Source: Candidatus Micrarchaeota archaeon
GTDB lineage: Archaea > Micrarchaeota > Micrarchaeia > Anstonellales > Anstonellaceae
Direction of reading: 5' to 3'
Length of the DNA: 64,000 nucleotides
Assembly: GCA_021814005.1 (NCBI GenBank)
Contig: JAKAJC010000004.1
Coordinates: 230-64,229 of the forward strand
Shown here: positions 9,465 through 31,864 of the stretch, in pieces
How positions within the stretch are numbered: the first letter of the stretch is position 1
Layout of the letters: each line of letters begins with the position of its first letter
The notes under the pieces: model-generated
Database searches by the model: none
The model's input: only the letters and a program-made list of their open reading frames with translations
Told to the model about the DNA's origin: nothing
Position numbers and translations under genes: made by a program

Positions 9465-9614
9465 GAAGACACCTCGAAGATAATGCACTGCATAACCGAA
9501 GAAGATTTATAATTGGGGCGCAGCGGCCCCAGACTTGCGCGGGCGAGAAGCTAATTCTGTTTTTGATTTTTTTGTTTTCCGGCCTTTGCCACCTCTTTTC
9601 GCATTCGACGGGAG

Positions 9615-9623
9615 TTTTATAAA
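9615..9623 (+). promoter_or_regulatory. TATA box (TTTTATAAA) centred about 27 nt upstream of the G1 ATG, predicting a leaderless transcript
   Basis: AT-rich box in a divergent intergenic region shared with psmA. The spacing matches the archaeal TATA-to-TSS distance. Confidence 0.45.
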
Positions 9624-9645
9624 CGATATCAGTGTTGCATCGTCA

Positions 9646-13956: not shown

Positions 13957-14000
13957 TGAAGCGAACAGATGAGAAAAACAAATGATGAAGCGAACAAATG
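13952..14000 (+). repeat. Two 20-bp direct repeats (aatgatgaagcgaacaRatg, one mismatch), the first overlapping the G1 stop codon. They lie upstream of a TATA-like AAATTTATTG at 14011-14020 and of the G2 ATG at 14033.
   Basis: Read directly from the sequence. The geometry fits transcription-factor sites upstream of an internal leaderless promoter. Confidence 0.5.
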
Positions 14001-14032
14001 GGATTTGCAAAAATTTATTGAAGTGATTTGAA

Positions 14033-14974: not shown

Positions 14975-16141
14975 ATGGTCGATTTTCTGGTGGCTGTCCC
15001 ATACGGCATAGCCATCGGCACCGGAATCGTCGCATTCGCCTACATGATAGGCTCGCTTCTGCAGTCGGACGCCATGAAATCGTGGAGCCGCCTTGAGCTT
15101 GGAGAGCTTGTGGTCTCGGCCATTCTTGTGGTGCTGGTTGCCGAGGCGCTCAGTCCGGCGGGGCAGGCCGGCATCATCAAGGCCTTCACCGGCGTGTCGA
15201 TGGGAATAGACGAGCTGCAGTCGAGGATGTATGTCTACATGGAGCTGCCGCTGGAAAAAGTGACAGAAGCCGTCGCAATAAGCAGCATGCATCTCAGCCG
15301 CATCATTTCCTACAATTACAACTACCAGCTGCCAATTCCCTACTTTTCGCCCACCGGCTCATCCAGCCCGGGCGCGGGAGCGGGGCCGCTGCAACTGTCG
15401 GTAATGATTGGCATGGATTCCACCGCTCTCAATCTCATGCTGGTCCATGCGGTCAAGCTGGTGTTTGTCTTCCTGATTTTCCTGCTGGGCACGTTCTTCA
15501 TGCCGCTCGGCATCATCCTGCGCTTCATCCCGCCTTTGCGGAAAATCGGAAGCATGCTGCTGGGCACGGGCCTGGCCGTCTATCTGGTGTTTCCCATCGC
15601 CATCTTCTGGGGCACGTCACTGCTGGCATTTTCGGTGAGCCCGCCCGATTACGACGCTGGCCGCCTGGTGCAGGACCCCGGCCGGCCTCCAACTTCCGGA
15701 TTCGTGTGCAGCACCGTCACGTCCGCCCTCTACAGCGCGGGCGAGCAGATTCCCGCATGGATAATCGGCGGAATAGTCTGCATCCCGACAATCATCACCG
15801 GCGGATACGTGGCCTGCGTCGGCACGCCCGGCTCGCCTCCGACATACGGGGGCGGAGTTGCCGGCATCGTTGCATACCTGATGTGGCTGTTCCAGTACGG
15901 CTTCCCCATCGCCACAACACAGTCGCTCAAGAGCGCGGGCGACACGCTGACGCCGGACTTCGTCTCCTCCGGCGTGTACCAGCCCATGGTGGGCTACCTT
16001 CTTCCATTGGCGGTGGTGCGAAATCTTGCGGTTCTTTTCATCGTAATCCTCGCGCTGGCGGCAACAATAATCCTGGCGCGCCAGTTCGCGCAGGTGCTGG
16101 GCGCGGAAGGGCAGTTCTACGGGCTGACAAAACTGGTGTAA
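14975..16141 (+). CDS. Polytopic membrane protein, paralogous module family member M1 (388 aa)
   Basis: Shares three motifs with five neighbours. The TM1 end is AYMIG, followed by KSWSRLEL. The central motif is FMPLGIILRFIPPLRKIGSMLLGTGLAVYLVFP. The C-terminal motif is YLLPLAVVRNL...LGAEGQFYGLTKLV. Confidence 0.7.
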   Translation: MVDFLVAVPYGIAIGTGIVAFAYMIGSLLQSDAMKSWSRLELGELVVSAILVVLVAEALSPAGQAGIIKAFTGVSMGIDELQSRMYVYMELPLEKVTEAVAISSMHLSRIISYNYNYQLPIPYFSPTGSSSPGAGAGPLQLSVMIGMDSTALNLMLVHAVKLVFVFLIFLLGTFFMPLGIILRFIPPLRKIGSMLLGTGLAVYLVFPIAIFWGTSLLAFSVSPPDYDAGRLVQDPGRPPTSGFVCSTVTSALYSAGEQIPAWIIGGIVCIPTIITGGYVACVGTPGSPPTYGGGVAGIVAYLMWLFQYGFPIATTQSLKSAGDTLTPDFVSSGVYQPMVGYLLPLAVVRNLAVLFIVILALAATIILARQFAQVLGAEGQFYGLTKLV

Positions 16142-16144
16142 TGG

Positions 16145-17197
16145 ATGGAAAACACGGCAGGAAAAATCGGTTCGGTTTCCCGTTTCGGGTTCGCCCCACT
16201 CGCAGTCCTCTCCCTGCTGTTTCTAGTCTCATCCTCTTCGGCCATCTTCGAGCCGCAGCTCTCGTGCTTCAACCAGACCTACAACATGGTGTATGATTTC
16301 GGCTCGCCAATCATCGCCGTCATTTTCATCATGGGCGTGCTCATCGCGATTGCGTACATGCTCGCGCAGCTTTTGGAAAAACCCGAGCTGTCGGTGTGGG
16401 CCAAGAGCGAAATAGTCACCCTGGGCTTTTCCATCCTTCTCATCGGCGCGGTGGTGGGCACGTTCGGACTTTCCTGCACAATCTCGAACTCGATGGTGTT
16501 TTCCGACTCGCGCGAATTCGCCAACAGCAGCGTGGTGGGGTCCGGCGCGCCGGCCAACGTTTTCACCAGCCCCGCGCAGAGGGCGGTGCAATATATCGAC
16601 AAGCTCACGCAGACCTACGGCCTGCGCCTCGCATCCGACCTCACCCGCCAGGCGGTGAACGACCAGCTCGGCGCGGTGGCATACGCGTACTGGTCCGTGC
16701 CGGTGCTTGACGGCGGCGGGCTTGCATACAAAGCCAACCAGCGCGCATGGGCGGCGCAGAAAGACATTCTCATCGACCTCTACATGCCGATGATGATTTC
16801 GCTGCAGGTGCAGAAATTCATGCTCAACCTGGCCATGGTCGGCGTGCTGAACATTCTTCTGCCGGCCGCGCTGCTTTTGCGCACGTTCTTCTTTTCGCGC
16901 GACATCGGCAACCTGCTCATCGCGCTCTCGTTTGCAATCTTCTTTGCCCTGCCGGTAGTCTATTCGTTCGGCTTCGAGGCGTCGGCAAATCTGCAGAAAC
17001 AGCTCTGTCCGTCGGGCTGCGACCCGCTCAATCCGTTCGGGCAGCTGAACATAGTCAAGGACCGCGTGGTTGGCGACAGCTATGCGAGAATCGGCTTCAT
17101 CTCCACACAAGCGATTTTAATCCCTAATCTCGCGCTGGTTGTGATGATAACCATGACCATGGCCCTAAACAAGGCCTTGAGAGGGTTCACAGGATGA
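16145..17197 (+). CDS. Polytopic membrane protein, paralogous module family member M2 (350 aa)
   Basis: The motifs are AYMLAQLLEKPELSVWAKSEI, LLPAALLLRTFFFSRDIGNLLIALSFAIFFALP and a C-terminal ILIPNLALVV...LRGFTG. It overlaps G5 by 4 nt (ATGA). Confidence 0.7.
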   Translation: MENTAGKIGSVSRFGFAPLAVLSLLFLVSSSSAIFEPQLSCFNQTYNMVYDFGSPIIAVIFIMGVLIAIAYMLAQLLEKPELSVWAKSEIVTLGFSILLIGAVVGTFGLSCTISNSMVFSDSREFANSSVVGSGAPANVFTSPAQRAVQYIDKLTQTYGLRLASDLTRQAVNDQLGAVAYAYWSVPVLDGGGLAYKANQRAWAAQKDILIDLYMPMMISLQVQKFMLNLAMVGVLNILLPAALLLRTFFFSRDIGNLLIALSFAIFFALPVVYSFGFEASANLQKQLCPSGCDPLNPFGQLNIVKDRVVGDSYARIGFISTQAILIPNLALVVMITMTMALNKALRGFTG

Positions 17198-20100
17198 GAA
17201 ATGAAAACGAAAACCCGGCGCGCCGCGAATCCGGCGTTTGCTTTGCGCCAGTCAATACGGCGCCAGCCGGCTTCCTGCCGCTGCACGCGCCGCATGTTTT
17301 CCTCTTCCTCCTCTGCCTTCTCTGTATCTCTCCAATAATTTTCTCCCAAAACACCACAATCCAGCCCGTGCTCACCGCCCAGAACGCGACTTTCGGGTTC
17401 GACAATTACGTGCGGGCAACCCTCGCGGCCGCCGCCCTCATGGCCGCAATCATGGCTCTGGTCTACATGGCAGGCATATTTTTCCAGAGCGAGGATGCCA
17501 AACAGCTGGCGCGCACTGAAATTCTGCAGACTGCTCTCAGCGTGATAATAGTCGCATTTCTTCTGGCCATTCTGCTCGGCGTCGACACCGGCCTTCGCCT
17601 TACCTCGGCCGAAATAGTCTCGCCCTGCGTGGGCCGCACCCTGCCCGCAAGCATCACGTCCGCCACTCTTCTCAACCAGTATGCATTCTGCTATGCGCAG
17701 GGCCTCAACGAAATGGCCATCGCGCAGGGCGACACCACAATCCGCAAGTCTGTCACATTTGCCAAGAAAGCGTATCGCATGGAAGGTTTCCAGACAGATT
17801 TGTGGTGGCTGCTCTACGGCGGCCTGACGCGCCGGCCCGATGCCAACCTGCGCCTTGACTCGGAAATCATGGGACAAGAGTTCACTCTTCTCACGTCATT
17901 CATGGTGAGCCTGCAGGGGCAGCTGGCATTTCTGCAATATATCGTGCCCGCGCTCGCGCCGGCGCTGCTTTTCCTTGGCGTCATCCTCCGCTCGCTTTTC
18001 TTCACCCGCAAACTTGGTGGCATGATGCTGGCAGCGGGAGCCGGATTATTGCTGGTGTGGCCGGCCACCTATCTGCTCTCATGGTTCACATTGCAGGTTG
18101 CGGTGTTCGGGCCGTCGGTGATGGGCGAGGAGCCGGGCTCGACCTGTCCAACCTCATGCAAAATCCTTCCCCCCGCCGGCTACAACATCTCAACAGCAAA
18201 TCCCGATTCATGGGGCAGTCCGCCTGCGGGTTCGCCTTATGCAACCGGCGCAATCAGCGCAAAGCAAATGGCAAGCGCCGGCGGCAGCTCGATTGCGCCT
18301 GACATCGGCGACGAGGCGGCCTGGAAACTGCGGGGCGTCCAGACCTGTTATCCGCAATACAATTACACTGAAGACAAGACAACCGGCACCCGCACATACA
18401 CTCTGCCGGCCGGCTATTCCAGCAGCGTGCCCGTGCAGTCTTCGGACAAGTGCCCCTCGGAGTGCCGCTTCCTTCCCACCCCGACGGATTTGAACTGCGA
18501 CCTGGCCGCCTGTGACAACATACCAATAGCCTGCAAGGCAATCAGGGCCATGAACCTTTCCACCTCGCCCCTGCCGAACCCGCCGGACAACTGCAACTCG
18601 TGCACCAGCTGCCCGGCGTTCTGCCGCACAATTTTGCCGCAGGTGAAATATGCAAACCCCGCAAACCCGGCCGCCGGAGTTGTGCCGACAACGAACGCGA
18701 ATTCATGCTCGGCCAATCCCGGCAATGCAACCCTATGCCCGCTCTACTGCCGCTCCTATTTGCACACGGACGCCAGCAACACGATTTCCTATTCCACTCC
18801 CGACTGCCAGGCCGCATGCCAAGCGACTCTTGACAACAAGAAAGACGCGGCAACGAGCCAGCCCGACTGCATGCTCGGCATTCCGGCCGCCATGATGGAG
18901 TGCAACACCCCCAACGTGTGCGGCCCTGCCATGAACCTTGAGGCTGCCATCGCCTCGGGCCGCACCGACCTCTGCCCGATTGAATGCCGCGTGAATTTCA
19001 ATTCATCTGGCACCGAGGACAGATACAAGGACCCGACATTCAACCAATACTGCACCGGCTCCGGCAAGTTCGGCACCGCGTGCGACACGCAATGCCCGAG
19101 CACGTGCAAGGTGAAAGCAAGCGCCGAGAACGCGGCGCTGCCAAATTCATTCTCGCTGGGCGTGCCCAACTCGTTCATAGTTTCGACCGGCGCAGGCAGT
19201 GTTCTTTGCGCGGCAGCCCCCACTTTCACAAACGGCCAGATGGACTCGAGCGTGAACGGGCAGTGCGCACGCTGCCCGCTCTCATGCCGCCTGCGCAACC
19301 CCTCCTCCATCCTCGACCTTGACAACAACCACAGCACTTACTTCTTCTCGCAGTCGCATTATGCCCTCACCTGCAATTACCGCAACACCACCCCAATCAT
19401 CCTGTACTCCGGCGCGTGCAGAAATTCCACATTCCCGCCCGGCTGGCTTGCGTTCGCTTCCGAAGATCCATCCGGCATTTCGTTGAGCCAAATCGGCCGC
19501 GGCCCGCCGGAATGCGCGCCAACCGCCCGCATTTACCTGCGCATGGATTCGTCAGACCCGCTCTGCCCGCTCTTTCTGGCCCCAATCCCGCCTTACATCA
19601 AGGACGGCACTCTTTCAAACGACCCTTCCAATTCCGCGGTGTCTGCCATCATTCCGCCAAACACCGACGTGTCGGCCGAATGCTCCACTCCCGATGCGCA
19701 GAAATACTGCCTCGGCAAAGACCCGCAGGGCCAGCCCTATTGCGACATTTCCTGCCAGCCAGACCGCGCCGTGAACGGGCCGTTCTACTGCCACTTGACC
19801 GACCTCTACAGCCCGCTCTCCAGCATTCCCGACAACACGCAGCGCTGCGGCGCCTGTTCGAGCCCGGCAGCAGACAATTCCAAGGGGCCGCAATGCCAAG
19901 TCATGCTGACAAGCGGCAGCACCCTCTATCTGCCCAAAGGCTGCGACCCGTCCTGCGCGCCCGGCTCGCTTGACACTGCGACCGGAATAATCCTCAACCC
20001 CGACACAGACCCCAAGTCGAGGGCTTCATGCGGCGGCTTCTGCTATCCGCGCCTGCCCATCCCCTCGTGCAGCGCATATGCCCCCGCCAGCACAACCAAT

Positions 20101-21423
20101 CCCAACGGCCGCGCGTTCGCCTCCTGTGCCGCCTGCCCAACCGACTGCCGCTATGATTATCTCACTGCCGCGGGCATCAGGCGCCCAAACAGCCAGGACA
20201 ACTACTGCGGCTGGAGCTTCACCGCGCCAACCGCATGCTTTTCCATCACGCTGGAGCGCCTGCGCGGCAGCGACATCCCAAGCGTGAACAACACCCGCTA
20301 TTATTCGTGCACGCAGACCGAAGCAGGCCAATACCACTGGGTGCGCACAAGCAGCGGCGTTGACAACAGAAGCGACAGCGGCTGCAACGCGGCCTGGTAT
20401 CCGATTGGCCACTTCACCAACCAAACCGTTGCCAACCTCGCGTGCGGCCCAGGCACTTTCAGCAACACCACGAGCGATGTCTACTCATGCACGCCGGTCC
20501 ACAAGTATCCGGCCCTCGACAGCCTTGTCACCTCTTCGGGCGGGCCTTCCGATTACCGCGAATGCGGAGACATAAGCGTCAACGGCCAGAATCCGAACAA
20601 CAACCTCTGCGGCGCGCGCACGTTCGGCGGCGCAAGCGTCCAGCTGTGCAAGAACGACCGCGCGGCAACAGATTCGTGCTTTGCCCACTTCAACGCGCTC
20701 GCGGTTGCCTGCCTGCCGATTACCGGCGTGGTGAATGATTACACAGACCCCGCCAACAATCCGACCAAGGCGGAGGAGAGCTGCCAGAACTGCCCGCTCT
20801 TCTGCCGCATAGACAACGGCGGCCAGATATGCTCGCCGTGGTCTGCCGGCGGCGAGCCTCCCAAATGTGATTTCCCCAACCAGTGCGACCGGCGCACTGC
20901 TCAGGGCAGCGGCTACTGCGGCATCCCGTCATCAGCATTCAAAATTGGCCAGGGCTGCGCGAATTACACCGGCGGCTCCGGCGTGGGCTGCCCCGCCCGC
21001 TGCCGCGTTTCACTGCCGTCCGGCAACGTGCCATACGGCTGCTCGGGCGGTGAAATCGGCAACGCATGCTCGCCCGGCAATCTTGATTCGGCATGCACCG
21101 CCACCCCGCCCGACAATCCGTGCGCAGGCTGCGGCGAATGCGACACCGACTGCCGCTCCACGCCTTATGTGCGGCAGAACTGCGACGACCTCTGCCTGCC
21201 GACAGACTTTGCCACCGGAGCCTCGCCCATCACGCCCAAGGACCTTTTGATGTCGTGGGAAGGCGCGTCGGGCAACCCCGACTGGCGCTCATTGGGCTCT
21301 TTGGGCATCGCCGCTTTCCTGCTGCCGATTCTCAACATCATACTCACTCTTGCATTCATCCGCAGCCTCTCGCCGGTGCTGGGCGGCGACATCGAGATTC
21401 CGGGAATACTCAAGGTGCTGTGA
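17194..21423 (+). CDS. Giant Cys-rich membrane glycoprotein G5 (1409 aa). An N-terminal paralogous membrane module is fused to a roughly 1000-aa Cys-rich ectodomain, followed by a C-terminal TM.
   Basis: The motifs are VYMAGIFFQSEDAKQLARTEI and LAPALLFLGVILRSLFFTRKLGGMMLAAG. The ectodomain has at least 13 copies of C-[PD]-x-x-C-[RKQ], for example CPSECRF, CPAFCRT, CPLYCRS, CPIECRV, CPLSCRL, CPTDCRY, CPLFCRI, CPARCRV and CDTDCRS. It also has many N-x-S/T sequons. The C-terminus is AFLLPILNIILTLAFIRSLSPVLGGDIEIPGILKVL. Confidence 0.75.
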   Translation: MRNENENPARRESGVCFAPVNTAPAGFLPLHAPHVFLFLLCLLCISPIIFSQNTTIQPVLTAQNATFGFDNYVRATLAAAALMAAIMALVYMAGIFFQSEDAKQLARTEILQTALSVIIVAFLLAILLGVDTGLRLTSAEIVSPCVGRTLPASITSATLLNQYAFCYAQGLNEMAIAQGDTTIRKSVTFAKKAYRMEGFQTDLWWLLYGGLTRRPDANLRLDSEIMGQEFTLLTSFMVSLQGQLAFLQYIVPALAPALLFLGVILRSLFFTRKLGGMMLAAGAGLLLVWPATYLLSWFTLQVAVFGPSVMGEEPGSTCPTSCKILPPAGYNISTANPDSWGSPPAGSPYATGAISAKQMASAGGSSIAPDIGDEAAWKLRGVQTCYPQYNYTEDKTTGTRTYTLPAGYSSSVPVQSSDKCPSECRFLPTPTDLNCDLAACDNIPIACKAIRAMNLSTSPLPNPPDNCNSCTSCPAFCRTILPQVKYANPANPAAGVVPTTNANSCSANPGNATLCPLYCRSYLHTDASNTISYSTPDCQAACQATLDNKKDAATSQPDCMLGIPAAMMECNTPNVCGPAMNLEAAIASGRTDLCPIECRVNFNSSGTEDRYKDPTFNQYCTGSGKFGTACDTQCPSTCKVKASAENAALPNSFSLGVPNSFIVSTGAGSVLCAAAPTFTNGQMDSSVNGQCARCPLSCRLRNPSSILDLDNNHSTYFFSQSHYALTCNYRNTTPIILYSGACRNSTFPPGWLAFASEDPSGISLSQIGRGPPECAPTARIYLRMDSSDPLCPLFLAPIPPYIKDGTLSNDPSNSAVSAIIPPNTDVSAECSTPDAQKYCLGKDPQGQPYCDISCQPDRAVNGPFYCHLTDLYSPLSSIPDNTQRCGACSSPAADNSKGPQCQVMLTSGSTLYLPKGCDPSCAPGSLDTATGIILNPDTDPKSRASCGGFCYPRLPIPSCSAYAPASTTNPNGRAFASCAACPTDCRYDYLTAAGIRRPNSQDNYCGWSFTAPTACFSITLERLRGSDIPSVNNTRYYSCTQTEAGQYHWVRTSSGVDNRSDSGCNAAWYPIGHFTNQTVANLACGPGTFSNTTSDVYSCTPVHKYPALDSLVTSSGGPSDYRECGDISVNGQNPNNNLCGARTFGGASVQLCKNDRAATDSCFAHFNALAVACLPITGVVNDYTDPANNPTKAEESCQNCPLFCRIDNGGQICSPWSAGGEPPKCDFPNQCDRRTAQGSGYCGIPSSAFKIGQGCANYTGGSGVGCPARCRVSLPSGNVPYGCSGGEIGNACSPGNLDSACTATPPDNPCAGCGECDTDCRSTPYVRQNCDDLCLPTDFATGASPITPKDLLMSWEGASGNPDWRSLGSLGIAAFLLPILNIILTLAFIRSLSPVLGGDIEIPGILKVL

Positions 21424-21428
21424 GAAAA

Positions 21429-22718
21429 ATGGCGCGAGCTCAAAAAACAAAAACAAAAAATGAAAAAGAAAACGGCTGCTCCCGTTTCGCGAGCATTGGC
21501 TTCGCGCGCGCCAGCCCTGCGCGCGCCAGCCCCGCGTTTTCTTCGGCGCGCTCGAGCGCGCTGCGGCATTTTGTTTTCTTGTTTATTACGGCCTCTCTGT
21601 TCCTTATCCCATCAATTCACGCGGCCGCCGCATGGCAGCCGGCAGTTTTCGCAGCCGTGCTCATCTCCGTCTCCGTGCTGGCAGTCGTTTACATGATTGT
21701 AACCGTGCTGAAATGGGACAGGTTCAAGGGCATCATAAAAGACGAGCTCGGCCAGACGTTCATCACATTTCTTCTGGTGGTCCTGCTTGTTGCAGGCATG
21801 TCCGAAGGCGAAACCCAAGCGTCGAAACTTGTGTGCGGCATTTCCGGCATGCCAGACTCCGGCTTCTGCCCGACTCCCGCGCGCGACACCATGATTTTCT
21901 GCAAAACTGCCGGAAGCAATCCCACCACATGCCCCATCACCGGCAGCCAGCCGCTCAACAACTGGGCCCTCTCGCTCAACACCAACGCGCAGTCTCTCCT
22001 GAGCACCAACCTGCTCGCCAAGGCGCTGGAGTTCAACCAAAAACTCGGCTATGTGAGCTCGGTGTCGGGCTTCTGCAACATGCTTGGCGTGGGCTTCTCC
22101 ATCGCCGGCTGCTCCACTTACGGCGTGCTGCGCGGACCCGTCGGCCAGCTGCTCAACGCAATCGGCATCGGATTGATGGATTTGCAGGCAGAGCGGATTC
22201 TGCTCCAGCTCAACACTGCCGGTTTCACGCTGAGCCTGCTTTTGCCGCTTGGCATCCTGCTCCGCGCGCTGCACTGGACCAGAAAGGCGGGCGGCACGCT
22301 CATCGCCCTCGCACTCTCGCTCTACTTCATTTTCCCCGCGTCGCTTTTGCTTGGGCAGGCGATGGCAGACCAGTTCATCAAGACGGGCAGCCCGTATCAG
22401 GCCCTCGCAGCCGGCCCGACGTTTCCGGCAATGAGCGGCAGCTACAATCCGCTCGACACATCTACCGTCGAATGCAATCCATTTGACCCAAGCACCGGCA
22501 AGATGGTCAACACCATGAACAGCTTCCTCACGCGCAGTCCTTCCGACCCCGCGAACGTCAAGAATCCATCCACCATCGACCAGATTCTTTTCGTTGTGAT
22601 GATACGCAACCTGATGATAACCATCGTGGCGCTCACAGTCACCCTCTCCGCCACGCGCGTGCTGGGCCACGCCCTTGGCGCGGAAATCGACGTGTGGGGC
22701 ATTGCGAGGCTGAGCTAA
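21429..22718 (+). CDS. Polytopic membrane protein, paralogous module family member M4 (430 aa)
   Basis: Start taken at MARAQKTK; the track's 21093 start overlaps G5 and is unlikely. The motifs are AVVYMIVTVLKWDRFKGIIKDEL, LLPLGILLRALHWTRKAGGTLIALALSLYFIFP and a C-terminal LGAEIDVWGIARLS. Confidence 0.7.
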   Translation: MARAQKTKTKNEKENGCSRFASIGFARASPARASPAFSSARSSALRHFVFLFITASLFLIPSIHAAAAWQPAVFAAVLISVSVLAVVYMIVTVLKWDRFKGIIKDELGQTFITFLLVVLLVAGMSEGETQASKLVCGISGMPDSGFCPTPARDTMIFCKTAGSNPTTCPITGSQPLNNWALSLNTNAQSLLSTNLLAKALEFNQKLGYVSSVSGFCNMLGVGFSIAGCSTYGVLRGPVGQLLNAIGIGLMDLQAERILLQLNTAGFTLSLLLPLGILLRALHWTRKAGGTLIALALSLYFIFPASLLLGQAMADQFIKTGSPYQALAAGPTFPAMSGSYNPLDTSTVECNPFDPSTGKMVNTMNSFLTRSPSDPANVKNPSTIDQILFVVMIRNLMITIVALTVTLSATRVLGHALGAEIDVWGIARLS

Positions 22719-25700
22719 ATGGAGAAAAAGAACCGGCCGCATTCACCGAAGTTCTCATCGCCATCGCCCATGCCGCACCTTGCGCTGTTATTTCTCTTGG
22801 CCGCAGTTCTGCTCGCTCCATTTGTTTCGGCAGACATAACCGCAACAATTGATTACAACAGCGCCCCTCCCCCGCCCGCCTCGCCCTGGCTCACCATAAC
22901 TCCGATGACTGTGGGCGTGAGCGCCGACTGCGGCACCATACCGCCCTGCGTGCCGCCGTTCAGAATCAATTTCCAGTTCGTCTGCGGCGGCACCCCTGTG
23001 CAGGAAACATTCACAAACGTCCCGCCGGCCTCCCGAACAGCATACACCTATTATCCAAACTCCGACCCCGCATGCCGCGAGCCGACGCCGCTGAATTCCA
23101 TAATCACAATCACCGACACTACTGGACAATCATTTTTCACGCAAAGTTTCCCCGTAGCTCTGGCAAATGGTACAGACACCACTCCGCCGGGCATCTCGTG
23201 GAATCCCGTGCCGCCGCCAGAATATGATGCGGGCGCAACCATCAGCTTCGGCTTCACAGTCACCGACCCTGACGACAACACCAACGCGATTCCGACATTG
23301 TATCCAAATGTCGCCACGGCCGAGGTGGAAATCACCGACTTGGGAAACGGCCAGGTCTATGGGCCATATGACATGGGCCCGTTCCCTCCACCGAACGGCT
23401 GGAGCACCCAAGTCTTTCATATAGAAGGCACCCCCAGCGCCGACCACACTGTTGAAATCAACTGCAGCCGCCTCAACTGCGTCGGAGATTTGCAAATAAA
23501 AGTCAGGTCCCACGACCCTGCGGGCCTTGGCATTACCCTGCCGCCAATGATTGTGCGCAGGCGCGGCGGCCTGGTTCTTCCCTCTCCCATATTGGGCATC
23601 ATCCCGCCCGCACCCGTCTGCCCCAACGCGGCCATCCGCGCCATGGCAAACCAGCCGTCTGGCTCCCCTGCAATAGACAGCCATGAATACAGCTGGTCCA
23701 TCACTCCAAATCCTCCGGTGCAGATAGATACTGTGCCCGACACCGCCAAAACGGGCGCCACTTCAGACACATTCGACTGCGCGGCGCGCAACTGCCAGAA
23801 CGGCCAGACCGTGTCAGTAAGCGTGCTCGCCATCGCCGGCGCCCAGCGCTCCCCTCCCAACGCCACCCTGATTCTCGTCGACGGCAGCAGCCTTGACTGC
23901 AGAATGCCGGCAGCCCCGCTTCTCACCAACCAGACAATATCCATCTCGCCCTTCAACGCGATAGTGCTGGCAAACCAGAGCAACAACGATCCGCGAGCCG
24001 TGCTCCACCGCTATGTCTGGACCATGGCCGACGGCACAGTCATCGAATCCCCGCTCATGCCCCTGCCAATCCAAAATGTCACATCAGCTCCCGTGCCCTG
24101 CGCCGCGAATCCAAACCTCTACTGCCCGTCGGGAGGAACCGTCCTTCTCACGGTCTATTCATACACTGCGCAGAATGTGCAATCCCAGCCAGCATTTATC
24201 TCCATCTTAATTCCGGCGCGCTCAGCCCTCAATCCGCCGGTGGTTGTCACCAAGCCCTTCAGCCCGTATGACAACGACACCATCGTGCTTGTTGCAAACA
24301 ACCAGAACGAAGAGGTGGACCGGCACCAGTACCGCCTGCTCATCATCAATGCGGACGGCACTATATACCAAGAAATCGATGCTCCAATCTACGACACTGT
24401 TTCCACAACCGCGGCAGACAAACACACCACCACATCCAAGCCATTCACCTGCACGACAAGCGTATGCAGGGGCCGCTTTGCCAACATAACCGCCCGCGCC
24501 TACAATTCCCTTGGCTGGTCAGACTGGTCTCCCTGGCTGAGCGTCCCATTCGGCCCGCCGCCGATTCCTGCGCCAATACTTGTGCGCATCGACCCGATTC
24601 CACCCGGCAATTCGATGCTGTCAGACATCAATTCCGGACTTGGCGCGCTCCTCAACACCTCGCTTGCCTACAGCTTCACAATAACCCCGCCCGCCGGCCA
24701 GCCGCCGTTCAACGACTATATTCCAACCCTCACAGTCAACGGCGCAGACGCGCCGGTTTCATCCAGCCGCTCGGGCAACAATCTCATCATCACTCTGGCC
24801 TGCACCCCGTCATCATGTCCGAACGGCTCAATCCTCACATACAAGGTAATCGGCGTGCAGGCGGGAGCGAATTCCACTCCCCTGTATTTCTCGCTTGTAG
24901 TTCCGCAGGCGAGCGGCATGCCCGCGCAGGTGGGCGTCATCTGTTCCGGCGCCGAACTGCAAAGATGGCTGCAGGTGATGGCCATCGGCATGATGGCCCT
25001 TCTCGCCCTTATCGCGCTCGTCTATATGATTGGCGAGGCGCTGCACCACCCGCAGCTTTTGGAATGGTCCAAATCAGAAATCGGGCACGTGGGCATGACC
25101 ATCATCCTCTTCTTCCTCATCGTATGGCTGATTCAGTTCCAGTGCAACCTGACGGTGGGCGAATTCCTCAACTGGTCTGGCTCGTCAAACCCCCTCTACT
25201 CGTCAGGCATGACGCTTTCACAGGCAGGTCTCAAATCGCTTGAATGGGGCATCACCCAGACGCGGCTCACCCTCGTGGCCATGCGCTACGAGATGGGAGT
25301 GCTCAACATGCGGGCCACCTATTCCTCCTACTCCACCCAGTTCCCCGGAATGGGCGGCAACGGCTACAGCTTCATGCCCTTCTCGGGCGATTACACCCTG
25401 CTCGGCTCGTTCGGCATGCTCACCAACCTCAACTCCACTTTCCTGCTCGCGCTCCTCTTCCAGCTATTCTCGCTGTTCTTCTTTTCCTCTTCCAGCGGGC
25501 TGTTCATATTCCTCGTGCCGGTCGGCCTCATACTGCGCTCGGTTCCGTTCATACGCGGATTCGGCGGCTCGCTGGTGGCCATCGGCATCGGCTTCTACAT
25601 ATTCTATCCGATTCTGCTTGCCTTCACCGGCCTTCTGCTCGCGCCGCTCTACTCGGGCATTGACTCCACCAGCCAGCTCGGCATCGCCGACGCCTCGCAG

Positions 25701-25991
25701 CTGGAGGCAAAAGAGCTTGCGATTCACACGCCATTCAGCAGCACCGGCCTTGCTGGCGACAACATTTTCAGCTACAATCCGGGCGACCCGTATCCGGGGC
25801 CGCTGATGCCCACCGCCGGCAAGGACTCGCCGCCGAAGCTGGGAATATATTTCAATCTAACTGCCCTGAATTTCCTGCGCGCCATCCTCATTCCGACCGC
25901 AGGGCTGATAGTGACCGTGTCATTTGTGCGCGACCTCGCGGCCATTTTCGGCGAAGAGGTGGACGCGTCGAAACTGATTGCCATGATTTAG
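22719..25991 (+). CDS. Giant surface glycoprotein G7 (1090 aa). It has a signal peptide, a roughly 700-aa sequon-rich ectodomain and a C-terminal paralogous membrane module.
   Basis: The signal peptide is LALLFLLAAVLLAPFVSADI. There are many N-x-S/T sites (NGT, NCS, NQT, NAT, NVT, NDT, NIT, NTS, NGS, NST). The module motifs are LVYMIGEALHHPQLLEWSKSEI, LVPVGLILRSVPFIRGFGGSLVAIGIGFYIFYP and a C-terminal ILIPTAGLIV...FGEEVDASKLIAMI. Its ATG abuts the stop of the upstream gene. Confidence 0.75.
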   Translation: MEKKNRPHSPKFSSPSPMPHLALLFLLAAVLLAPFVSADITATIDYNSAPPPPASPWLTITPMTVGVSADCGTIPPCVPPFRINFQFVCGGTPVQETFTNVPPASRTAYTYYPNSDPACREPTPLNSIITITDTTGQSFFTQSFPVALANGTDTTPPGISWNPVPPPEYDAGATISFGFTVTDPDDNTNAIPTLYPNVATAEVEITDLGNGQVYGPYDMGPFPPPNGWSTQVFHIEGTPSADHTVEINCSRLNCVGDLQIKVRSHDPAGLGITLPPMIVRRRGGLVLPSPILGIIPPAPVCPNAAIRAMANQPSGSPAIDSHEYSWSITPNPPVQIDTVPDTAKTGATSDTFDCAARNCQNGQTVSVSVLAIAGAQRSPPNATLILVDGSSLDCRMPAAPLLTNQTISISPFNAIVLANQSNNDPRAVLHRYVWTMADGTVIESPLMPLPIQNVTSAPVPCAANPNLYCPSGGTVLLTVYSYTAQNVQSQPAFISILIPARSALNPPVVVTKPFSPYDNDTIVLVANNQNEEVDRHQYRLLIINADGTIYQEIDAPIYDTVSTTAADKHTTTSKPFTCTTSVCRGRFANITARAYNSLGWSDWSPWLSVPFGPPPIPAPILVRIDPIPPGNSMLSDINSGLGALLNTSLAYSFTITPPAGQPPFNDYIPTLTVNGADAPVSSSRSGNNLIITLACTPSSCPNGSILTYKVIGVQAGANSTPLYFSLVVPQASGMPAQVGVICSGAELQRWLQVMAIGMMALLALIALVYMIGEALHHPQLLEWSKSEIGHVGMTIILFFLIVWLIQFQCNLTVGEFLNWSGSSNPLYSSGMTLSQAGLKSLEWGITQTRLTLVAMRYEMGVLNMRATYSSYSTQFPGMGGNGYSFMPFSGDYTLLGSFGMLTNLNSTFLLALLFQLFSLFFFSSSSGLFIFLVPVGLILRSVPFIRGFGGSLVAIGIGFYIFYPILLAFTGLLLAPLYSGIDSTSQLGIADASQLEAKELAIHTPFSSTGLAGDNIFSYNPGDPYPGPLMPTAGKDSPPKLGIYFNLTALNFLRAILIPTAGLIVTVSFVRDLAAIFGEEVDASKLIAMI

Positions 25992-26004
25992 GAGAGAACC
26001 TGCC

Positions 26005-27198
26005 ATGACAAAACAAAAAATAAAATCAAAAACAAATTCGGCCCCCATGTCGGGATTGCTTTCGGCCAGCCGCGCACGTTTCACCCTCTCCTCCTTCTTC
26101 CTCACATTCTTCTTCATCCTCTTCCTCTCGTCAATTCTCGCGGCTCTCGACCCCAACGCCCTCACATGGAGCAATCCCGACAAGCTCATGGTCCGCTCGG
26201 CCGGCTACTTCCAGCCAACCTCGCCCAACAGCTGGTACCGCATGGTCATTCCCGCTCTGGCCATCTGCATTTTTGCCAACACTCTTGTCTATGTGTTCGG
26301 GCGCGTTGCGAACGCGCCGCACGTGGTCCAGTTCGCGAAATCAGAATTCTACCAGGTCACGGCCTCGGCAGTCATGATATTCATTTTGGTGGCCGCGGGC
26401 GCGGAATCATTCCGCTATATTCAGGACAGCGGCCTGCTGCCCGCAGGCACCACGACTTTGTGCTACGGACAGGCGATGTCAGTTTGGGATGTGGGGCCGT
26501 TCGGCATAATCCGCTGCAAGCTGCAGGAGAAAATCGACTATGTTGAAGACCTCTACAATCAGGCATGGACTCTCAACGCCAATGTCGAGCCTCTCACCAC
26601 CTATTCGCTCTACCTCTTCAACATACCCGTCTATGTGTGGGACTGGAACACCGCCCTGCATTCGCAGATGGAGCAGGCCCACTTCATAGCCAACAAGCTC
26701 ACGCCAATCGGCATCAGCCTTCACGCGCAATTCATGTTTGCAGAATATCTTGCCCAGAACATGCTCAACGTATTTTTGCCGGTCGGCCTGCTGCTGCGCA
26801 TCTTCCCCATCCTGCGCGGCATCGGCTCTCTCATGGTGGCCATCTCAATCGGCTTCTTCTTCGTGTTCCCCATCGCATACATTTTGATGGACCCGACAAC
26901 CGTGCGGCCCGACCCTGCCACCCTCATACCGGCGGTCAATGACAACAAGGCCAACGTGTGCTACACTTCGTTCAGCGGCATGGTGACCACCTACACCCAA
27001 ATCGCCCCGAAGGTGGCGCAAAAGGCGGAGACGGCCGACATCACCCAAATAGGCTCGGAACTTGCCAAACTGCAGATAGAGGCGTTCTTCTATCCGCTTG
27101 CCGCGCTTGCCACCGCGCTGGTGTTCATCTCCATCGCCACGCCAATCTTGGGCGGCGACTCGGGGGAAATCATGCACTTCCTCACAAAGGTGATATGA
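26005..27198 (+). CDS. Polytopic membrane protein, paralogous module family member M6 (397 aa)
   Basis: The motifs are LVYVFGRVANAPHVVQFAKSEF, FLPVGLLLRIFPILRGIGSLMVAISIGFFFVFP and a C-terminal FFYPLAALATALVF...LGGDSGEIMHFLTKVI. Confidence 0.7.
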   Translation: MTKQKIKSKTNSAPMSGLLSASRARFTLSSFFLTFFFILFLSSILAALDPNALTWSNPDKLMVRSAGYFQPTSPNSWYRMVIPALAICIFANTLVYVFGRVANAPHVVQFAKSEFYQVTASAVMIFILVAAGAESFRYIQDSGLLPAGTTTLCYGQAMSVWDVGPFGIIRCKLQEKIDYVEDLYNQAWTLNANVEPLTTYSLYLFNIPVYVWDWNTALHSQMEQAHFIANKLTPIGISLHAQFMFAEYLAQNMLNVFLPVGLLLRIFPILRGIGSLMVAISIGFFFVFPIAYILMDPTTVRPDPATLIPAVNDNKANVCYTSFSGMVTTYTQIAPKVAQKAETADITQIGSELAKLQIEAFFYPLAALATALVFISIATPILGGDSGEIMHFLTKVI

Positions 27199-27199
27199 G

Positions 27200-30100
27200 T
27201 TGGGAAAAGAAAAAGAAATTGAGAGCATGCGCGCACAGGCGCCGCACCCGTCGCGGGAATCGGACAGTGGAACAAATATCAATCTGTTGTTTTTGGCCGC
27301 CATCTCCCTCTCCCTTCTCTCCCTCATTTTCCTCTCGGGCTGCGTGCAGCCCAACTCCAACCTCTCCTACGGCGCGTGCTGCATGCAGAGCAATTCGTTC
27401 TATACCTGCCAGGTGCGCACCGACGCCAACGGCACGCAGCAGCGGGATTCGAACGGCAACCTTCTCATCGACGGCTGCGGCCCCTGCATTGCCGTTGCCA
27501 AGAACGGCACGGTTTACAACTCGTCCGGCCCAACCGACGCCGCGCTCTGCACAAACAACTGCAACTTCAAGCAGTCCAACTGCACCAATTTCGACGGCAA
27601 AAACACCTGCTATCTTGTGGACAAGAACATGCAGACAACCAACGAATCGGTGGGCCCGATTTGCATGGCCGCAACCGACCCGTGCGTGCAGAACAACTGC
27701 ACTGCCATGGTTTACGGCAAGCCGCTTCCATCCCCCAAGCGCAGCATCAACTCCCAGTCGGTGCAGCAGTCCAACAACCCGGACGGCAACGCGTTCAAGC
27801 AGGACGCGGCCAACCAGAAGACCGGCCTTGTGGGCCGCATCATGCAGTTCAGCCAGTTCAACACCCGCCTTGCCCGCCTCTTGAAAAGTCCGGACTGGTC
27901 TGTGAACACTTTGCGCCTCGGCCTCCAAGGACAATTTTCCGACTACGACCGCGCGCGTTTCTATCTTCCGCCCTCGGATTACTTCTGCCCGCAAAACAAC
28001 CCCAACGCAATAGTTGACCGCTACACCGCCTATCTGGACGGGTTGAGCGCGCTCCCGCCTTTCCGCTCATACTACACTGTCAATTACGCAACAACCTGCA
28101 GCCCCGGCCACAAAAAACCCCCGTATGGCGGCTGGTATTCAACATGCACCTGCACTCCCTCCAGCCCTCCCGCCCCGCCGTGCGGCAAGGATTTCATGGG
28201 TTCTTCTGCCCTTGATGCAGAAGACATGTGCAACTCCTCCTGCACGAATTTCAGCCGTGTATACAGCACGCCCAATTTCAAGAATCCGCTCAGCCTCTGC
28301 CGCCTCGAGCCGGCATCAGGCGCCAATCTCTCCTACTTCTACTGCGATGTCAATCCCGGGCTCAAGTTCACCATCGCCGACCCGTCCGACCAGCTGCGCG
28401 CATATCTTTCCTGCCAGAAAGCATGCAGTTACAGCCAATACCGCACATGCAGCCAGAATCAGGACCTTCTGACCTACAACGCCAATCTCCACCCCAATAT
28501 TTATTCGCCCTCCAATTGGCCTCCACAAACACCTCCGGCCGGCTCAATCCAGCCGTTCATCGACATCGACCAATATGCCAAGGCGCTTGCGAACGCTTAT
28601 CCGACTCCGACCGGGCCGGCCTGGTGCCCCGCGCTTGTGGCGCTAAGACCCGACCCTGCCAAGGAGGCGGCGATGAAGAATGACCCGCGCAATTACTACA
28701 AATGCCTTCTGCCCGAACCCAACAGTGCCGGCGCCAACCAGACCATAGCCGCCTACGGCATCACGGCCGACCAGTACAACACCACCTATATGAGCGAGGG
28801 CATCAAGCCCGGGCCTGCCGGCGGCAAGGTGTTTGAGTGCACCGGCGGCGGCGACTGCCTCTCCGGCATCTGCGACAAATCCACCTATTCGCGCACCTCA
28901 TGCTTCCTCAAAGACGGCTCTGCGGTTGACTGCGCCTGCCGCTGGGTAACCAATTGCAAGCTCGCGTACCAATGCTCGGGTTACGAAGCCCGCAGCATCA
29001 GAAAAGACCAGTGCGAGGTGAACCTCAACAACTGCCAGGAGGCACAGGGAGGCTCGGACTATCCGGTGCTGATGTGCGAGTACCGCATCAATCCGCTCAC
29101 TCCCCAGACCGCCAATCCGCCCATCCATGGCCTGCGCACCCCCTACGCCTCCAGTGGCAACTATGTTTTCAACGACGGCCGCAACGGCTACGGCATTCTG
29201 CATATCGAGGAATTCAACAAATACATCGACGCTGCGGTCGCGGACGCCGAGCTTGCCACGGTGCAAAGGCCCTCCACTTCGCTCGAATTGTGCCCAAGCC
29301 GCGTGCGCCGGCCATGCGCCTCTTCAACAGAACAGGGCTGCTATGTGAGGAACACCAATCCTCCCGACGTGTCGGTGCTCTGGCAGCATGACGGCGACAG
29401 CGACGTATACCAGAACATACCGGCCTACACGCCCACCTACGACGCCTGCCCAAGCGGCGGCACGCTGTCCAATGTCTCTGGCTGGAAAGACACTCCCAAG
29501 GCATTTGGCGACTATTTGCGCGACAGTTCCTACCCCTCGCGCGAAACATTTGCTCTCGTGCCCACGCAGCAGGCGGTGGCCGGGCCGGGAGGCGCGCATT
29601 TCATCACCACCAGCCGCTATGTGACATGGCAGAATGACAACTGCTATTTCTCGCTCTCCGGCTACACTCTGAGCGGCTCAAAATGTCCGGCAGACCAGGT
29701 CCGCTTCCCGCTCTTTCAGGCCTGCAACATGAGCGTTAATTCCGAATATTTCAACAAAGCCGCAGGCAGCAGGAGCTATCCTTATCAGGACGCGTATCAG
29801 GCCGAAATATACAATGCCCGCGGGCAGGATGCGGCCGGCTCCGCGTTTGATGTGAAATATGTGGACGGCTATTCCTACGACCCAAACAACAACGACACCC
29901 TTTATTCCTACGGCGGCTCTGACCCCTACCGCATAGACAAGACGTGGGCAATCTACAGTTTCGGCGCCTGCCAGGTCCAGCCAAGCACCCCATCCGCTCC
30001 GGCGGTGTCGGGCAAGAGCCCGCCGCCGGTGGTGTTCAGCTACGGCATGTGCCGCTCGTGCGGCACCCTGCTGTCCATGGCTTACCAGCCGGTGAAGGAT

Positions 30101-31864
30101 TCGCCTCTGGCCTTCCCATACGACTTCAACGGCTACTGCCCCTCGGGCTGCAAAAAGTATATTTGGAACGGCTTTCTGAATATGGGGCCGAAATTCTCGT
30201 GGTGCGCCGAGTGCCCGTCCAGCTATCCTGCGCAGACTTTCAGCCAATTCGCAAGAGGCTCGCCGGCAATGTATCCTGATTTCGGATTTCTGGCCGACAA
30301 AATCAACGAATACCAGTCATCCAACATCCTGCCAGTTCTGGATGTGCGCAACTACCACTATGCCGACGGGGGCAGCACTGTTGTGAGAGTGCCGTTCTCA
30401 AATCTCTGCCAGACGCTCGGCGGCAAGAGGGGCGGCTCCGGCGCAATCAACCAAAACGGCGGCGTGTATCAGGGTTCTGCCTGGGACTGCACCCTTCCCG
30501 CACAGCCCGACTGGCTGCTTGCATATCTGAACAAGAACCACTCGGCCGCGGTTCTTATCGTGGCCAACCTGCCCCCCGCCGCAATCGACCCGGCTGTCGT
30601 GCAGGCGGAGGTGGACCGCTCTGCGAAGGCCTGCCCCAACTGCCTGCGGGCGCTCGAATACGTCCCGCTTCTCACGCCTTCCGACGTGACGGGGGCAGAC
30701 TACAATTATCCTTCAGCCCTCAACGACTCGGTGGCTTCATACACGAACGTGTCATTCAATCCCCTGCGCGTCAGCACGCCTCCCGAATGGCTGTCCAACC
30801 GCGGCAAGAAGCCCGACAACGTGCGGCAGGTGGACATGATAGTGCTTGAGCTTGACATGTCCGGCGTGGACATGACCAACGAGACGACCGTGGACAACGC
30901 AGTCCTCGCTTATGTCAACCTCTCGCGCCGCCTGCTGCAGCACGTGGGCTGGCCGACAATTTGGAAAATCAATTACAGATTCGGCATGTACCCCTCCGCG
31001 CTCACCAACGACGTCCTCTACCGCCGCATCATAGCGCACGAGCGCGAGATGACGCTGGCAGGGGTGAGCGGCGTGCTTATGCCGGCCATGGACAACGGCG
31101 ACCCGGACGGGCACATCACCGGCCCGCCCACCGAGCAGTTCGGCCGCCTTCTTCCCAACACCGGCGGCTTGAGCGGCTCGAGCCTTATCCGCGCATCCGG
31201 CACGCCTTTCTGCGCCCTGCAAAATGCCTCGGCCGAATTCCTGCATCCCAAGATGATGGTCGGCACCCAGAAAATTCTGGCCAAGAACAACTGCTCCTGC
31301 CTGCCGTGCAGCGACATGGACCTTCTGGCCGGCAACTGCAACAACAAGTGCTATGACGGGCTGGCCTGCGAGGCTCCCGGCGGCGGCACAAGCGCCGGCA
31401 GCAAGTGCGAGCCATACTGCGTGCGCAACAGCTTCTGCCAAAACAACCTGTGCAACGGCACCCAGATTGGAAGCAAGACAACAACCTGCACCGCCCTGCG
31501 CCCCACCAACCTGCCGCCTGTCTCCTGCGGCGCCAACAACGCCCTCTTCCCCAAGTGCGACGTGCTGGCCGATGCCGCGCTCAAAGACATAGCCGCATTG
31601 CCGCAGGCGCCGCAGCTTATCGGCGGATTGCCGCCGGGGCAGGGCTGCTGCCTGTCGCAGAATCGCACCTATTACACCTACCGCTCTGCCGGTTCTGCCG
31701 CCACTTCAGCAGAGCCGGTCATTTTCCCCGGCTACGGCGCCAACACCACAGACTGCGGGCGCGTGCCGGACCCGGGCGACCCCTATTCCGACCCGTCCGC
31801 AAACTGCGCCGTGCCGCCTGCTCCGCTAAGCAATGTGATGTGGACCTGCACCCCGCCGAGATGA
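27200..31864 (+). CDS. Giant Cys-rich secreted lipoprotein-like protein G9 (1554 aa) with no membrane module
   Basis: The track gives a TTG start; the ATG at MRAQAPH is an alternative. The signal peptide ends in the lipobox-like LSGC. It is extremely Cys-rich, with CxxC, CPxxCK and CPxC pairs. It has many sequons and a hydrophilic C-terminus. It is the last gene of the cluster. Confidence 0.75.
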   Translation: MGKEKEIESMRAQAPHPSRESDSGTNINLLFLAAISLSLLSLIFLSGCVQPNSNLSYGACCMQSNSFYTCQVRTDANGTQQRDSNGNLLIDGCGPCIAVAKNGTVYNSSGPTDAALCTNNCNFKQSNCTNFDGKNTCYLVDKNMQTTNESVGPICMAATDPCVQNNCTAMVYGKPLPSPKRSINSQSVQQSNNPDGNAFKQDAANQKTGLVGRIMQFSQFNTRLARLLKSPDWSVNTLRLGLQGQFSDYDRARFYLPPSDYFCPQNNPNAIVDRYTAYLDGLSALPPFRSYYTVNYATTCSPGHKKPPYGGWYSTCTCTPSSPPAPPCGKDFMGSSALDAEDMCNSSCTNFSRVYSTPNFKNPLSLCRLEPASGANLSYFYCDVNPGLKFTIADPSDQLRAYLSCQKACSYSQYRTCSQNQDLLTYNANLHPNIYSPSNWPPQTPPAGSIQPFIDIDQYAKALANAYPTPTGPAWCPALVALRPDPAKEAAMKNDPRNYYKCLLPEPNSAGANQTIAAYGITADQYNTTYMSEGIKPGPAGGKVFECTGGGDCLSGICDKSTYSRTSCFLKDGSAVDCACRWVTNCKLAYQCSGYEARSIRKDQCEVNLNNCQEAQGGSDYPVLMCEYRINPLTPQTANPPIHGLRTPYASSGNYVFNDGRNGYGILHIEEFNKYIDAAVADAELATVQRPSTSLELCPSRVRRPCASSTEQGCYVRNTNPPDVSVLWQHDGDSDVYQNIPAYTPTYDACPSGGTLSNVSGWKDTPKAFGDYLRDSSYPSRETFALVPTQQAVAGPGGAHFITTSRYVTWQNDNCYFSLSGYTLSGSKCPADQVRFPLFQACNMSVNSEYFNKAAGSRSYPYQDAYQAEIYNARGQDAAGSAFDVKYVDGYSYDPNNNDTLYSYGGSDPYRIDKTWAIYSFGACQVQPSTPSAPAVSGKSPPPVVFSYGMCRSCGTLLSMAYQPVKDSPLAFPYDFNGYCPSGCKKYIWNGFLNMGPKFSWCAECPSSYPAQTFSQFARGSPAMYPDFGFLADKINEYQSSNILPVLDVRNYHYADGGSTVVRVPFSNLCQTLGGKRGGSGAINQNGGVYQGSAWDCTLPAQPDWLLAYLNKNHSAAVLIVANLPPAAIDPAVVQAEVDRSAKACPNCLRALEYVPLLTPSDVTGADYNYPSALNDSVASYTNVSFNPLRVSTPPEWLSNRGKKPDNVRQVDMIVLELDMSGVDMTNETTVDNAVLAYVNLSRRLLQHVGWPTIWKINYRFGMYPSALTNDVLYRRIIAHEREMTLAGVSGVLMPAMDNGDPDGHITGPPTEQFGRLLPNTGGLSGSSLIRASGTPFCALQNASAEFLHPKMMVGTQKILAKNNCSCLPCSDMDLLAGNCNNKCYDGLACEAPGGGTSAGSKCEPYCVRNSFCQNNLCNGTQIGSKTTTCTALRPTNLPPVSCGANNALFPKCDVLADAALKDIAALPQAPQLIGGLPPGQGCCLSQNRTYYTYRSAGSAATSAEPVIFPGYGANTTDCGRVPDPGDPYSDPSANCAVPPAPLSNVMWTCTPPR

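Follow-up and report, generated by a model that had tools for sequence, protein, structure and literature searches.

Archaeal lipoproteins that carry a lipobox are substrates of the AliA and AliB enzymes (arCOG02177 and arCOG02178) in Haloferax volcanii, and they are predicted to be prevalent in DPANN archaea as they are in Euryarchaeota (PMC12462473). The AliA family of lipidation enzymes occurs in DPANN archaea "with some gaps", and the signal peptides of these lipoproteins feature an n-region and an h-region ending in [L/V/I]-[A/S/T/V/I]-[G/A/S]-C (PMC12462473). The same arrangement is found in the product of G9, a gene located in a 64,000-nucleotide stretch of a Candidatus Micrarchaeota archaeon genome (assembly GCA_021814005.1, contig JAKAJC010000004.1, positions 230 to 64,229 of the forward strand), which is referred to here as the window. 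G9 is the last gene in a run of nine that share one direction (9535-31864, + strand). Unlike known lipobox lipoproteins, the G9 protein, for which lipidation is predicted, has about 1550 amino acids of which 4.8% are cysteine, features no known domain, and is encoded at the end of an operon with six paralogous membrane proteins. The reading favored here, with a probability of roughly 55%, is that G9 is an exported, lipid-anchored, disulfide-stabilized ectodomain subunit of an undescribed Micrarchaeota envelope complex with a glycan role. Within this reading, G9 as an anchored ectodomain partner is considered likely, and the glycan role, which is derived from a structural model, is put forward tentatively.

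In the Sus-like systems of Bacteroides, the surface lipoprotein SusG is a glycosidase that acts beside membrane partners from the same locus. G9 would resemble SusG by functional analogy only, as a lipid-anchored, glycan-directed barrel that is encoded with membrane partners. There is no homology between the two, and the TonB-dependent barrels of the Sus-like systems contrast with the five-transmembrane (five-TM) paralogs and the archaeal membrane of the system described here. Within the same phylum, the Micrarchaeota S-layer protein SLP_Mh (Micr_00292) is a PF05123 protein of ~101 kDa with almost no sulfur-containing residues (bioRxiv 10.1101/2021.04.28.441871). SLP_Mh is like G9 in that it is a large, exported, probably glycosylated envelope protein, but G9 has no PF05123-type match and features 75 cysteines, a composition opposed to that of SLP_Mh as described; an S-layer identity was therefore rejected. 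An open reading frame (ORF) elsewhere in the window (50-4177, - strand, 1375 amino acids, no Pfam match) has 0.29% cysteine, which is nearer to the described S-layer composition and the opposite of G9.

The sole N-terminal hydrophobic stretch of G9 (residues 24-52) is preceded by residues rich in K, R, and E and ends at L45-S-G-C48. A charged n-region and a hydrophobic h-region are both present, and L45-S46-G47-C48 matches the lipobox pattern, [L/V/I] at position -3, [A/S/T/V/I] at -2, [G/A/S] at -1, and C at +1. By its sequence G9 is a lipobox lipoprotein, and Cys48 is the predicted site of lipidation. The motif [LIMV]-x-G-C is retained in all 14 close homologs, in which G47 and C48 are invariant and a conserved V-x-P-N-S-N-L-S-Y-x-x-C-C sequence follows the lipobox directly. 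Across the superfamily as a whole, an x-x-[GAS]-C lipobox is present in 132 of 153 members (86%) and mostly ends at residues 11-31. No other protein of the operon has a lipobox. The signal of G9 was found to have no twin-arginine motif; therefore, export would proceed via Sec. The initial annotation of this DNA had described a signal peptide ending in a lipobox-like LSGC, which the conservation of the motif confirms, and had called the protein secreted. The exported part of the latter claim stands, although the protein is better read as lipid-anchored than as secreted.

The second line of evidence is provided by the cysteines. At 4.8%, the cysteine content of G9 is below the 6.0% of G5, one of the membrane protein genes of the operon, and above the 0.3-3.6% of ten other genes in the window. 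In 55 alignment columns, at least 12 of 14 sequences have a cysteine; the protein had been correctly annotated as Cys-rich. Cysteine parity was determined for 126 full-length lipobox-bearing members by counting from the lipobox cysteine onward. An odd number was obtained for 100 members (binomial P = 1e-11), including 14/14 close relatives and 86/112 remote ones. This odd count points to the lipobox cysteine as the one unpaired residue and fits a protein with one lipidated cysteine and ~27 predicted disulfides, and it is not expected for clusters of metal ligands. The initial annotation had also reported many CxxC pairs, a feature that is no richer than in shuffled sequence (5 observed, 3.6 ± 1.8 in shuffles, P = 0.28), and two CxxC pairs of the family are invariant (C1145/C1148 and C1367/C1370). 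The many sequons reported for G9 amount to a modest enrichment (25 N-x-S/T sites, 15.3 ± 3.6 in shuffles, P = 0.008) that is not conserved, with 4-22 sites in the homologs.

The comparison with the ectodomain of G5, which had been described as equally Cys-rich, holds for composition and fails for homology. No relationship between G9 and the G5 ectodomain was detected by blastp, phmmer, or hhalign, and the profile-profile probability between the two families is 0.2%; G9 as a detached copy of the G5 head was rejected on these grounds. In the G5 ectodomain (17194-21423, + strand) a CPxxC[RK] motif occurs about twelve times, with the copies conserved across 8 orthologs (for example NCPxECRF, VCPxECRV, RCPLxCRF, and GCPARCRISLP), which suggests a repeated small disulfide module. 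G9 carries only a few CPxxC-like copies (YCPSGCKKY and KCEPYCVRN); its residues 780-1000 hold a single YCPxGC copy of the CPxxC motif, which in G5 recurs many times.

The third line of evidence is gene order. G3-G8 (14975-27198) share a module of ~5 TM segments that was detected by phmmer and blastp (E 1e-5 to 1e-13). The module features the pattern Y...E...LR.....R..G...P with invariant residues Y96, E114, L264, R265, R271, G274, and P289 (G8 numbering) and a C-terminal tail of the form LGxE...L.K(L/V)I. By the same searches the module is absent from G9, G1, and G2, as had been stated for G9, and no known relative of it was found in Pfam, PDB, PADLOC, or PHROGs. Giant ectodomains are limited to some paralogs and lineages; the one of G5 interrupts the module, and that of G7 precedes it. 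In 14/14 distinct loci with upstream sequence, a G9-like gene directly follows 3-6 module genes. Among these loci, the 12 with sufficient upstream sequence each have one module gene with a giant Cys-rich insert (39-100 Cys); the other two contigs (L009 and L017) end before that gene. Three further loci have no module genes and start inside the G9-like gene itself. The synteny covers the remote relatives L006, L007, and L020 (E ~1e-30 to 1e-39; about 20-25% identity). Homologs that occur apart from the module genes, which the initial annotation had named as evidence against its proposal, were looked for and none was found among the informative loci. Its proposal of an extracellular subunit attached to the surface through lipid or through the module proteins is supported by the conserved lipobox, the cysteine parity, and this strict synteny in 14 loci.

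The junction between the last module gene and G9 is tight. The TTG codon of G9 sits 1 nt past the G8 stop, the corresponding junctions in five other loci measure -4 to +2 nt, and G9 is apparently coupled translationally to the last module gene. The public gene call of the identical protein (P0001) starts nine codons after the TTG, at the ATG at 27227. The TTG is nevertheless a plausible true start because of the 1-nt gap to G8, the junctions of the five other loci, and the N-terminus of a homolog (P0006), MEKEK, which resembles the MGKEKE of G9. G9 had been called the last gene of the operon, and downstream it is indeed followed by a tRNA gene (31946-32058, + strand) and then by the convergent NMD3 gene. 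An intrinsic-terminator-like site after G9 was looked for and not found. The downstream neighbors vary between loci and include the proteasome alpha gene, NMD3, or an ORF of 2469 amino acids. The latter is located in L020 (14124-21533, + strand), directly after the G9-like gene, and has no Pfam domains. In the remote locus L006 an opposite-strand gene lies upstream of the first module gene and counterparts of G1 and G2 are not seen. Judged by this locus, the only remote one examined that far upstream, G1 and G2 may lie outside of the conserved core.

The G9 family is large and is nearly confined to one phylum in its labels. A word-indexed protein search returned only 14 proteins, and the same 14 were returned with the family profile. 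The close homologs (n = 14) are 26-46% identical and 1351-1603 amino acids long. An exhaustive hidden Markov model (HMM) search with residues 200-1399 of G9 returned 207 cluster representatives at a threshold of E <= 1e-3, and 175 of these also pass E <= 1e-10. Nearly all of the 207 are 1100-1800 amino acids long and match in several separate stretches, and variable insertions separate the conserved blocks of the family. The organism labels are Micrarchaeota, Micrarchaeia, Anstonellales, and Anstonellaceae, together with one metagenome-assembled genome labeled "Methanosarcinales archaeon", so that all informative labels but one are Micrarchaeota. Among the close relatives, informative labels are Micrarchaeota without exception. 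The exception is L007 (P0051, RLG25807.1), an 11-kb contig with the full operon that carries the Methanosarcinales label at NCBI and that may be mis-binned, given that the other informative labels are all Micrarchaeota. A scan of GTDB species genomes yielded 12 loci. The label is Micrarchaeota or Micrarchaeia for 11, and the other two, which come from a single assembly, are labeled only as "uncultured archaeon".

No curated family accounts for these proteins. Scans of the nine operon proteins against Pfam, NCBIfam, PADLOC, and PHROGs gave nothing significant, and G9, 13 close homologs, and 7 remote homologs gave no significant match in Pfam or NCBIfam. Even at a permissive Pfam threshold (E <= 1 for the G9 family and E <= 5 for the module set) no family recurred in more than one member. 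Sequence searches of the PDB with G9 alone, with the 14-sequence and 36-sequence profiles, and with the module profile also returned nothing. Matches of G9 to a surface-layer or protease family, which were raised in the initial annotation as an outcome that would speak against it, were looked for and none was found. No description of the G9 family or of the operon in DPANN archaea or Micrarchaeota was found in the searchable literature.

Structural information on G9 comes from AlphaFold2 (AF2) models. A first model of residues 200-1399, computed from a 14-sequence multiple sequence alignment (MSA), had a mean predicted local distance difference test score (pLDDT) of 58.6 and was replaced by a model based on a 36-sequence MSA that includes remote members. 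The latter has a mean pLDDT of 73.5, a predicted TM-score (pTM) of 0.74, and 301 residues at pLDDT >= 90. Its best-modeled part is formed by residues 1019-1310, where pLDDT values of 10-residue blocks are 58-96 and mostly 80-96, with strands at 1044-1051, 1118-1123, 1149-1158, 1213-1218, 1253-1257, and 1289-1294. A second hydrophobic stretch of G9, residues 1116-1135, is modeled as a buried beta strand and not as a TM helix. Foldseek searches against the PDB returned mostly TIM barrels, led by glycosidases of clan GH-A (glycoside hydrolase family 79 (GH79) heparanase and beta-glucuronidase, GH10 xylanases, and GH2), with E values of 1.4e-4 to 1e-3, a probability of ~1.0, TM-scores (TMt) up to 0.43, and a root-mean-square deviation (rmsd) of 5-15 Å. 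Both AF2 models gave the same outcome. Clan GH-A (GH79 entries 7pr9, 5bwi, and 5g0m; GH10 entries 1w32, 6wqw, and 8bbi) is the best and only class of structural match, a distant one, for residues ~1019-1310, and no Foldseek match was found for the Cys-rich parts of G9. A likeness to viral glycoproteins or fusogens was considered and rejected, with a best Foldseek E value of 0.017 against BFVD. A substrate-binding lipoprotein of an ATP-binding cassette importer was also rejected, since no substrate-binding-protein-like fold was among the Foldseek matches and Pfam and NCBIfam scans of the nine operon proteins gave no substrate-binding protein, permease, or ATPase profile match.

As a barrel, the modeled domain of residues 1019-1310 would lack its first two strands. 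These would be supplied by residues 209-289, a block in which N236, R239, G241, D248, D250, P257, D260, D273, R274, and Y278 are conserved, so that the predicted barrel would be split by a Cys-rich insertion of ~740 residues. Conserved acidic residues include D248 and D250, located in a loop that follows a strand, D1048, within strand 1044-1051, as well as D260 and D273. In the model D248, D250, and D1048 sit where barrel enzymes and lectins bind their ligands and may form a putative ligand site. G9 differs from clan GH-A in having no sequence similarity to it, in the low TM-scores and large rmsd of the match, and in a predicted barrel that is apparently interrupted and stitched by disulfides. 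In GH-A enzymes the catalytic Glu residues are located at the ends of beta-4 (acid/base, in N-E-P) and beta-7 (nucleophile), and neither has a conserved counterpart in G9. On the modeled fold, G9 is glycosidase-like and is not a member of clan GH-A.

The steps by which G9 would reach its place can be proposed from these results. G9 would be made together with G8 through translational coupling and would pass the membrane unfolded via Sec, after which Cys48 would be lipidated and the signal peptide removed. Outside of the cell the protein would fold into a compact multidomain body that is locked by disulfides, their number of ~27 being suggested by cysteine conservation and parity. Its core would be a glycosidase-like (beta/alpha) barrel, split by the Cys-rich insertion and devoid of the Glu pair. 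The tethered protein would act beside the ectodomains of G3-G8, above all that of the Cys-rich G5, a placement that is suggested by the strict synteny. In the last and weakest step, G9 would bind or cut a glycan of the cell's own envelope or of the host surface. A broader proposal, which is possible though doubtful, joins the conserved core of five to six five-TM paralogs, one with a CPxxC[RK] giant ectodomain, and G9 into a new Micrarchaeota-specific envelope machine. A hetero-oligomeric membrane platform would carry a disulfide-armored extracellular head, and G9 would be an Asp-based split-barrel glycan cutter or gripper that engages or breaches the host surface in symbiosis.

Several observations weigh against the anchored, glycan-directed subunit. 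A recognizable lipobox is missing in 21/153 superfamily members, some of which are incomplete or carry a wrongly called start. By its rmsd and TMt values the fold match is weak, and it spans only ~20% of G9; the split topology of the barrel and the proposed grouping of conserved Asp residues are read only from the order of secondary-structure elements. G9 lacks the catalytic Glu pair of clan GH-A and has no invariant or near-invariant Glu at the strand ends of residues 1019-1310, and for this reason its barrel may have no catalytic activity or no connection with sugars. Profile searches of Pfam, NCBIfam, and PDB sequences gave no sequence-level link to any glycosidase family, and neither an ATPase nor another source of energy is encoded in the conserved core. 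Lipidation, the disulfides, and the formation of a complex are all predictions at present.

The absence of the Glu pair also favors an alternative in which G9 is a lipid-anchored structural spike or a host-recognition adhesin. The barrel would then be a degenerate, non-catalytic scaffold, comparable to the inactive chitinase-like lectins, and binding may be to protein. This explanation would account for the ~80% of G9 that is Cys-rich elaboration without an enzyme-like match, and diversifying pressure on a surface would fit the variable insertions found between the conserved blocks. An adhesin would also suit the dependence of cultivated DPANN archaea on cell contact with their host (PMC11329633). 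However, the residues that are most conserved across the superfamily are charged (D248, D250, D260, D273, R239, and R274) and lie beside the barrel strands, a pattern seen more typically in ligand or catalytic sites than in scaffolds, and no similarity to known adhesin folds was found; the adhesin is regarded as somewhat unlikely. A further alternative keeps the enzyme and gives up the anchor, so that G9 would be a freely secreted enzyme or toxin that is cleaved by signal peptidase I and exported or processed by the module proteins. The terminal position of the gene, the absence of TM segments beyond the signal, and the hydrophilic C-terminus, which had been noted before and is now seen to be a conserved W-x-C-T-x-P end without a C-terminal anchor, are compatible with release. 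Yet the +1 cysteine after L-x-G is invariant while the surrounding residues vary, parity leaves the lipobox cysteine unpaired, and a released protein would need no conserved lipobox, which makes secretion improbable.

The cysteines themselves could have another role, as ligands of metals or clusters in an extracellular metal-binding or redox protein. The high cysteine content and the two invariant CxxC pairs are the features that invite this interpretation. It is contradicted by the lack of CxxC enrichment, by a parity that fits pairing, by the rarity of histidine (0.8% in G9, family mean 0.96%), by the extracytoplasmic location, and by the absence of any metalloprotein family match in Pfam, NCBIfam, or PDB sequences, and it is held to be very improbable. 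G9 might also be independent of the module proteins, with the adjacency reflecting co-expression of unrelated envelope genes, given that the association is drawn from gene order and that G9 shares no homology or domain with G3-G8. Relatives down to ~20-25% identity nonetheless retain the gene order and a junction in which the genes overlap or abut, while the downstream genes change, and mere co-expression has only a slim chance of being the explanation. The preferred reading of G9 as an anchored ectodomain partner of the module proteins is consistent with the lipobox, the parity, and the synteny together. The extents of the G9 regions and of the other genes of the run are listed in Table 1.

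Table 1. Coordinates in the window of the G9 gene, of its regions, and of the upstream genes of the run.
Feature	Coordinates	Strand	Remarks
G9 coding sequence	27200..31864	+	1554 aa from TTG, uninterrupted ORF; alternative ATG at 27227 gives 1545 aa
Predicted Sec-type signal peptide (n-region, h-region) and lipobox	27200..27343	+	Lipobox L45-S46-G47-C48 at nt 27332-27343
N-terminal Cys-rich region	27344..27799	+	Residues 49-200; 12 conserved Cys columns; starts V-x-P-N-S-N-L-S-Y-x-x-C-C
Block best conserved superfamily-wide	27824..28066	+	Residues 209-289; short beta-alpha segment; pLDDT 68-94
Dense invariant Cys cluster	28817..29089	+	Residues 540-630; GPAGxKVFEC...; 11 invariant Cys; pLDDT 73-91
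Beta-rich region	29537..30199	+	Residues 780-1000; conserved C842, C924, C951, C980, C984
Alpha/beta domain	30254..31129	+	Residues 1019-1310; six beta-alpha units
C-terminal Cys-rich region	31211..31864	+	Residues 1338-1554; 16 conserved Cys columns; hydrophilic end W-x-C-T-x-P
G8	26005..27198	+	Module paralog directly upstream of G9; public start 26047
G3, G4, G5, G6, G7	14975..25991	+	Module-bearing paralogs; G5 with Cys-rich giant insert (85 Cys)
G1, G2	9535..14971	+	First genes of the run; G1 1473 aa, two TM segments; G2 312 aa, soluble, basic tail

The surroundings of G9 feature some additional points. In G1 the two TM segments are followed by a tail of ~1200 residues that is rich in G, S, A, and K, and the C-terminal tail of G2 is very basic (…SSKSKSSARKPAAKKKKPERGA). 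The longest ORFs of G6, G7, and G8 differ in their starts from the public calls at 21429, 22770, and 26047, and the stretches concerned are 21093-21455, 22719-22769, and 26005-26046; the 541-amino acid ORF of G6, which overlaps the end of G5 by 330 nt, is probably too long. GC skew is -0.14 to -0.20 across G5-G9 (~18000-30000) and about -0.02 to -0.10 in most of the remaining window. The genes that flank the run are archaeal (NMD3, DUF2070, GatD/GatE, a Lon-like AAA protein, HerA, and proteasome alpha). The tRNA gene downstream of G9 contains an intron and was missed by ARAGORN and by a whole-window Rfam scan at gathering thresholds. A sensitive cmscan search identified it as RF00005 with 47.5 bits and a 42-nt insertion that starts after anticodon position 35. 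Read by eye, it has a GUG anticodon and, at 31946, an additional 5' G opposite C73, both of which are hallmarks of tRNA-His.

The genomes of Micrarchaeota are ~1 Mb in size, and the cultivated members are host-dependent. An operon of 15-22 kb takes up ~2% of such a genome, and because it is kept phylum-wide without a curated family match it ranks as a strong candidate for envelope biology that defines the lineage. The most tractable part of this operon is G9, being the sole core member without membrane helices, and it offers handles in the predicted lipid anchor, the disulfide architecture, and the putative ligand site (D248, D250, D260, D273, and D1048). If the lipidation of G9 is true, it would rank with the largest lipoproteins predicted in archaea, and the known range of lipobox biology would grow to include DPANN archaea. 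Its constant position beside unexplained membrane proteins makes G9 a candidate for the handling of surfaces or hosts by Micrarchaeota, and it bears on the interaction of DPANN archaea with their hosts, on attachment and exchange, where molecular understanding is least.

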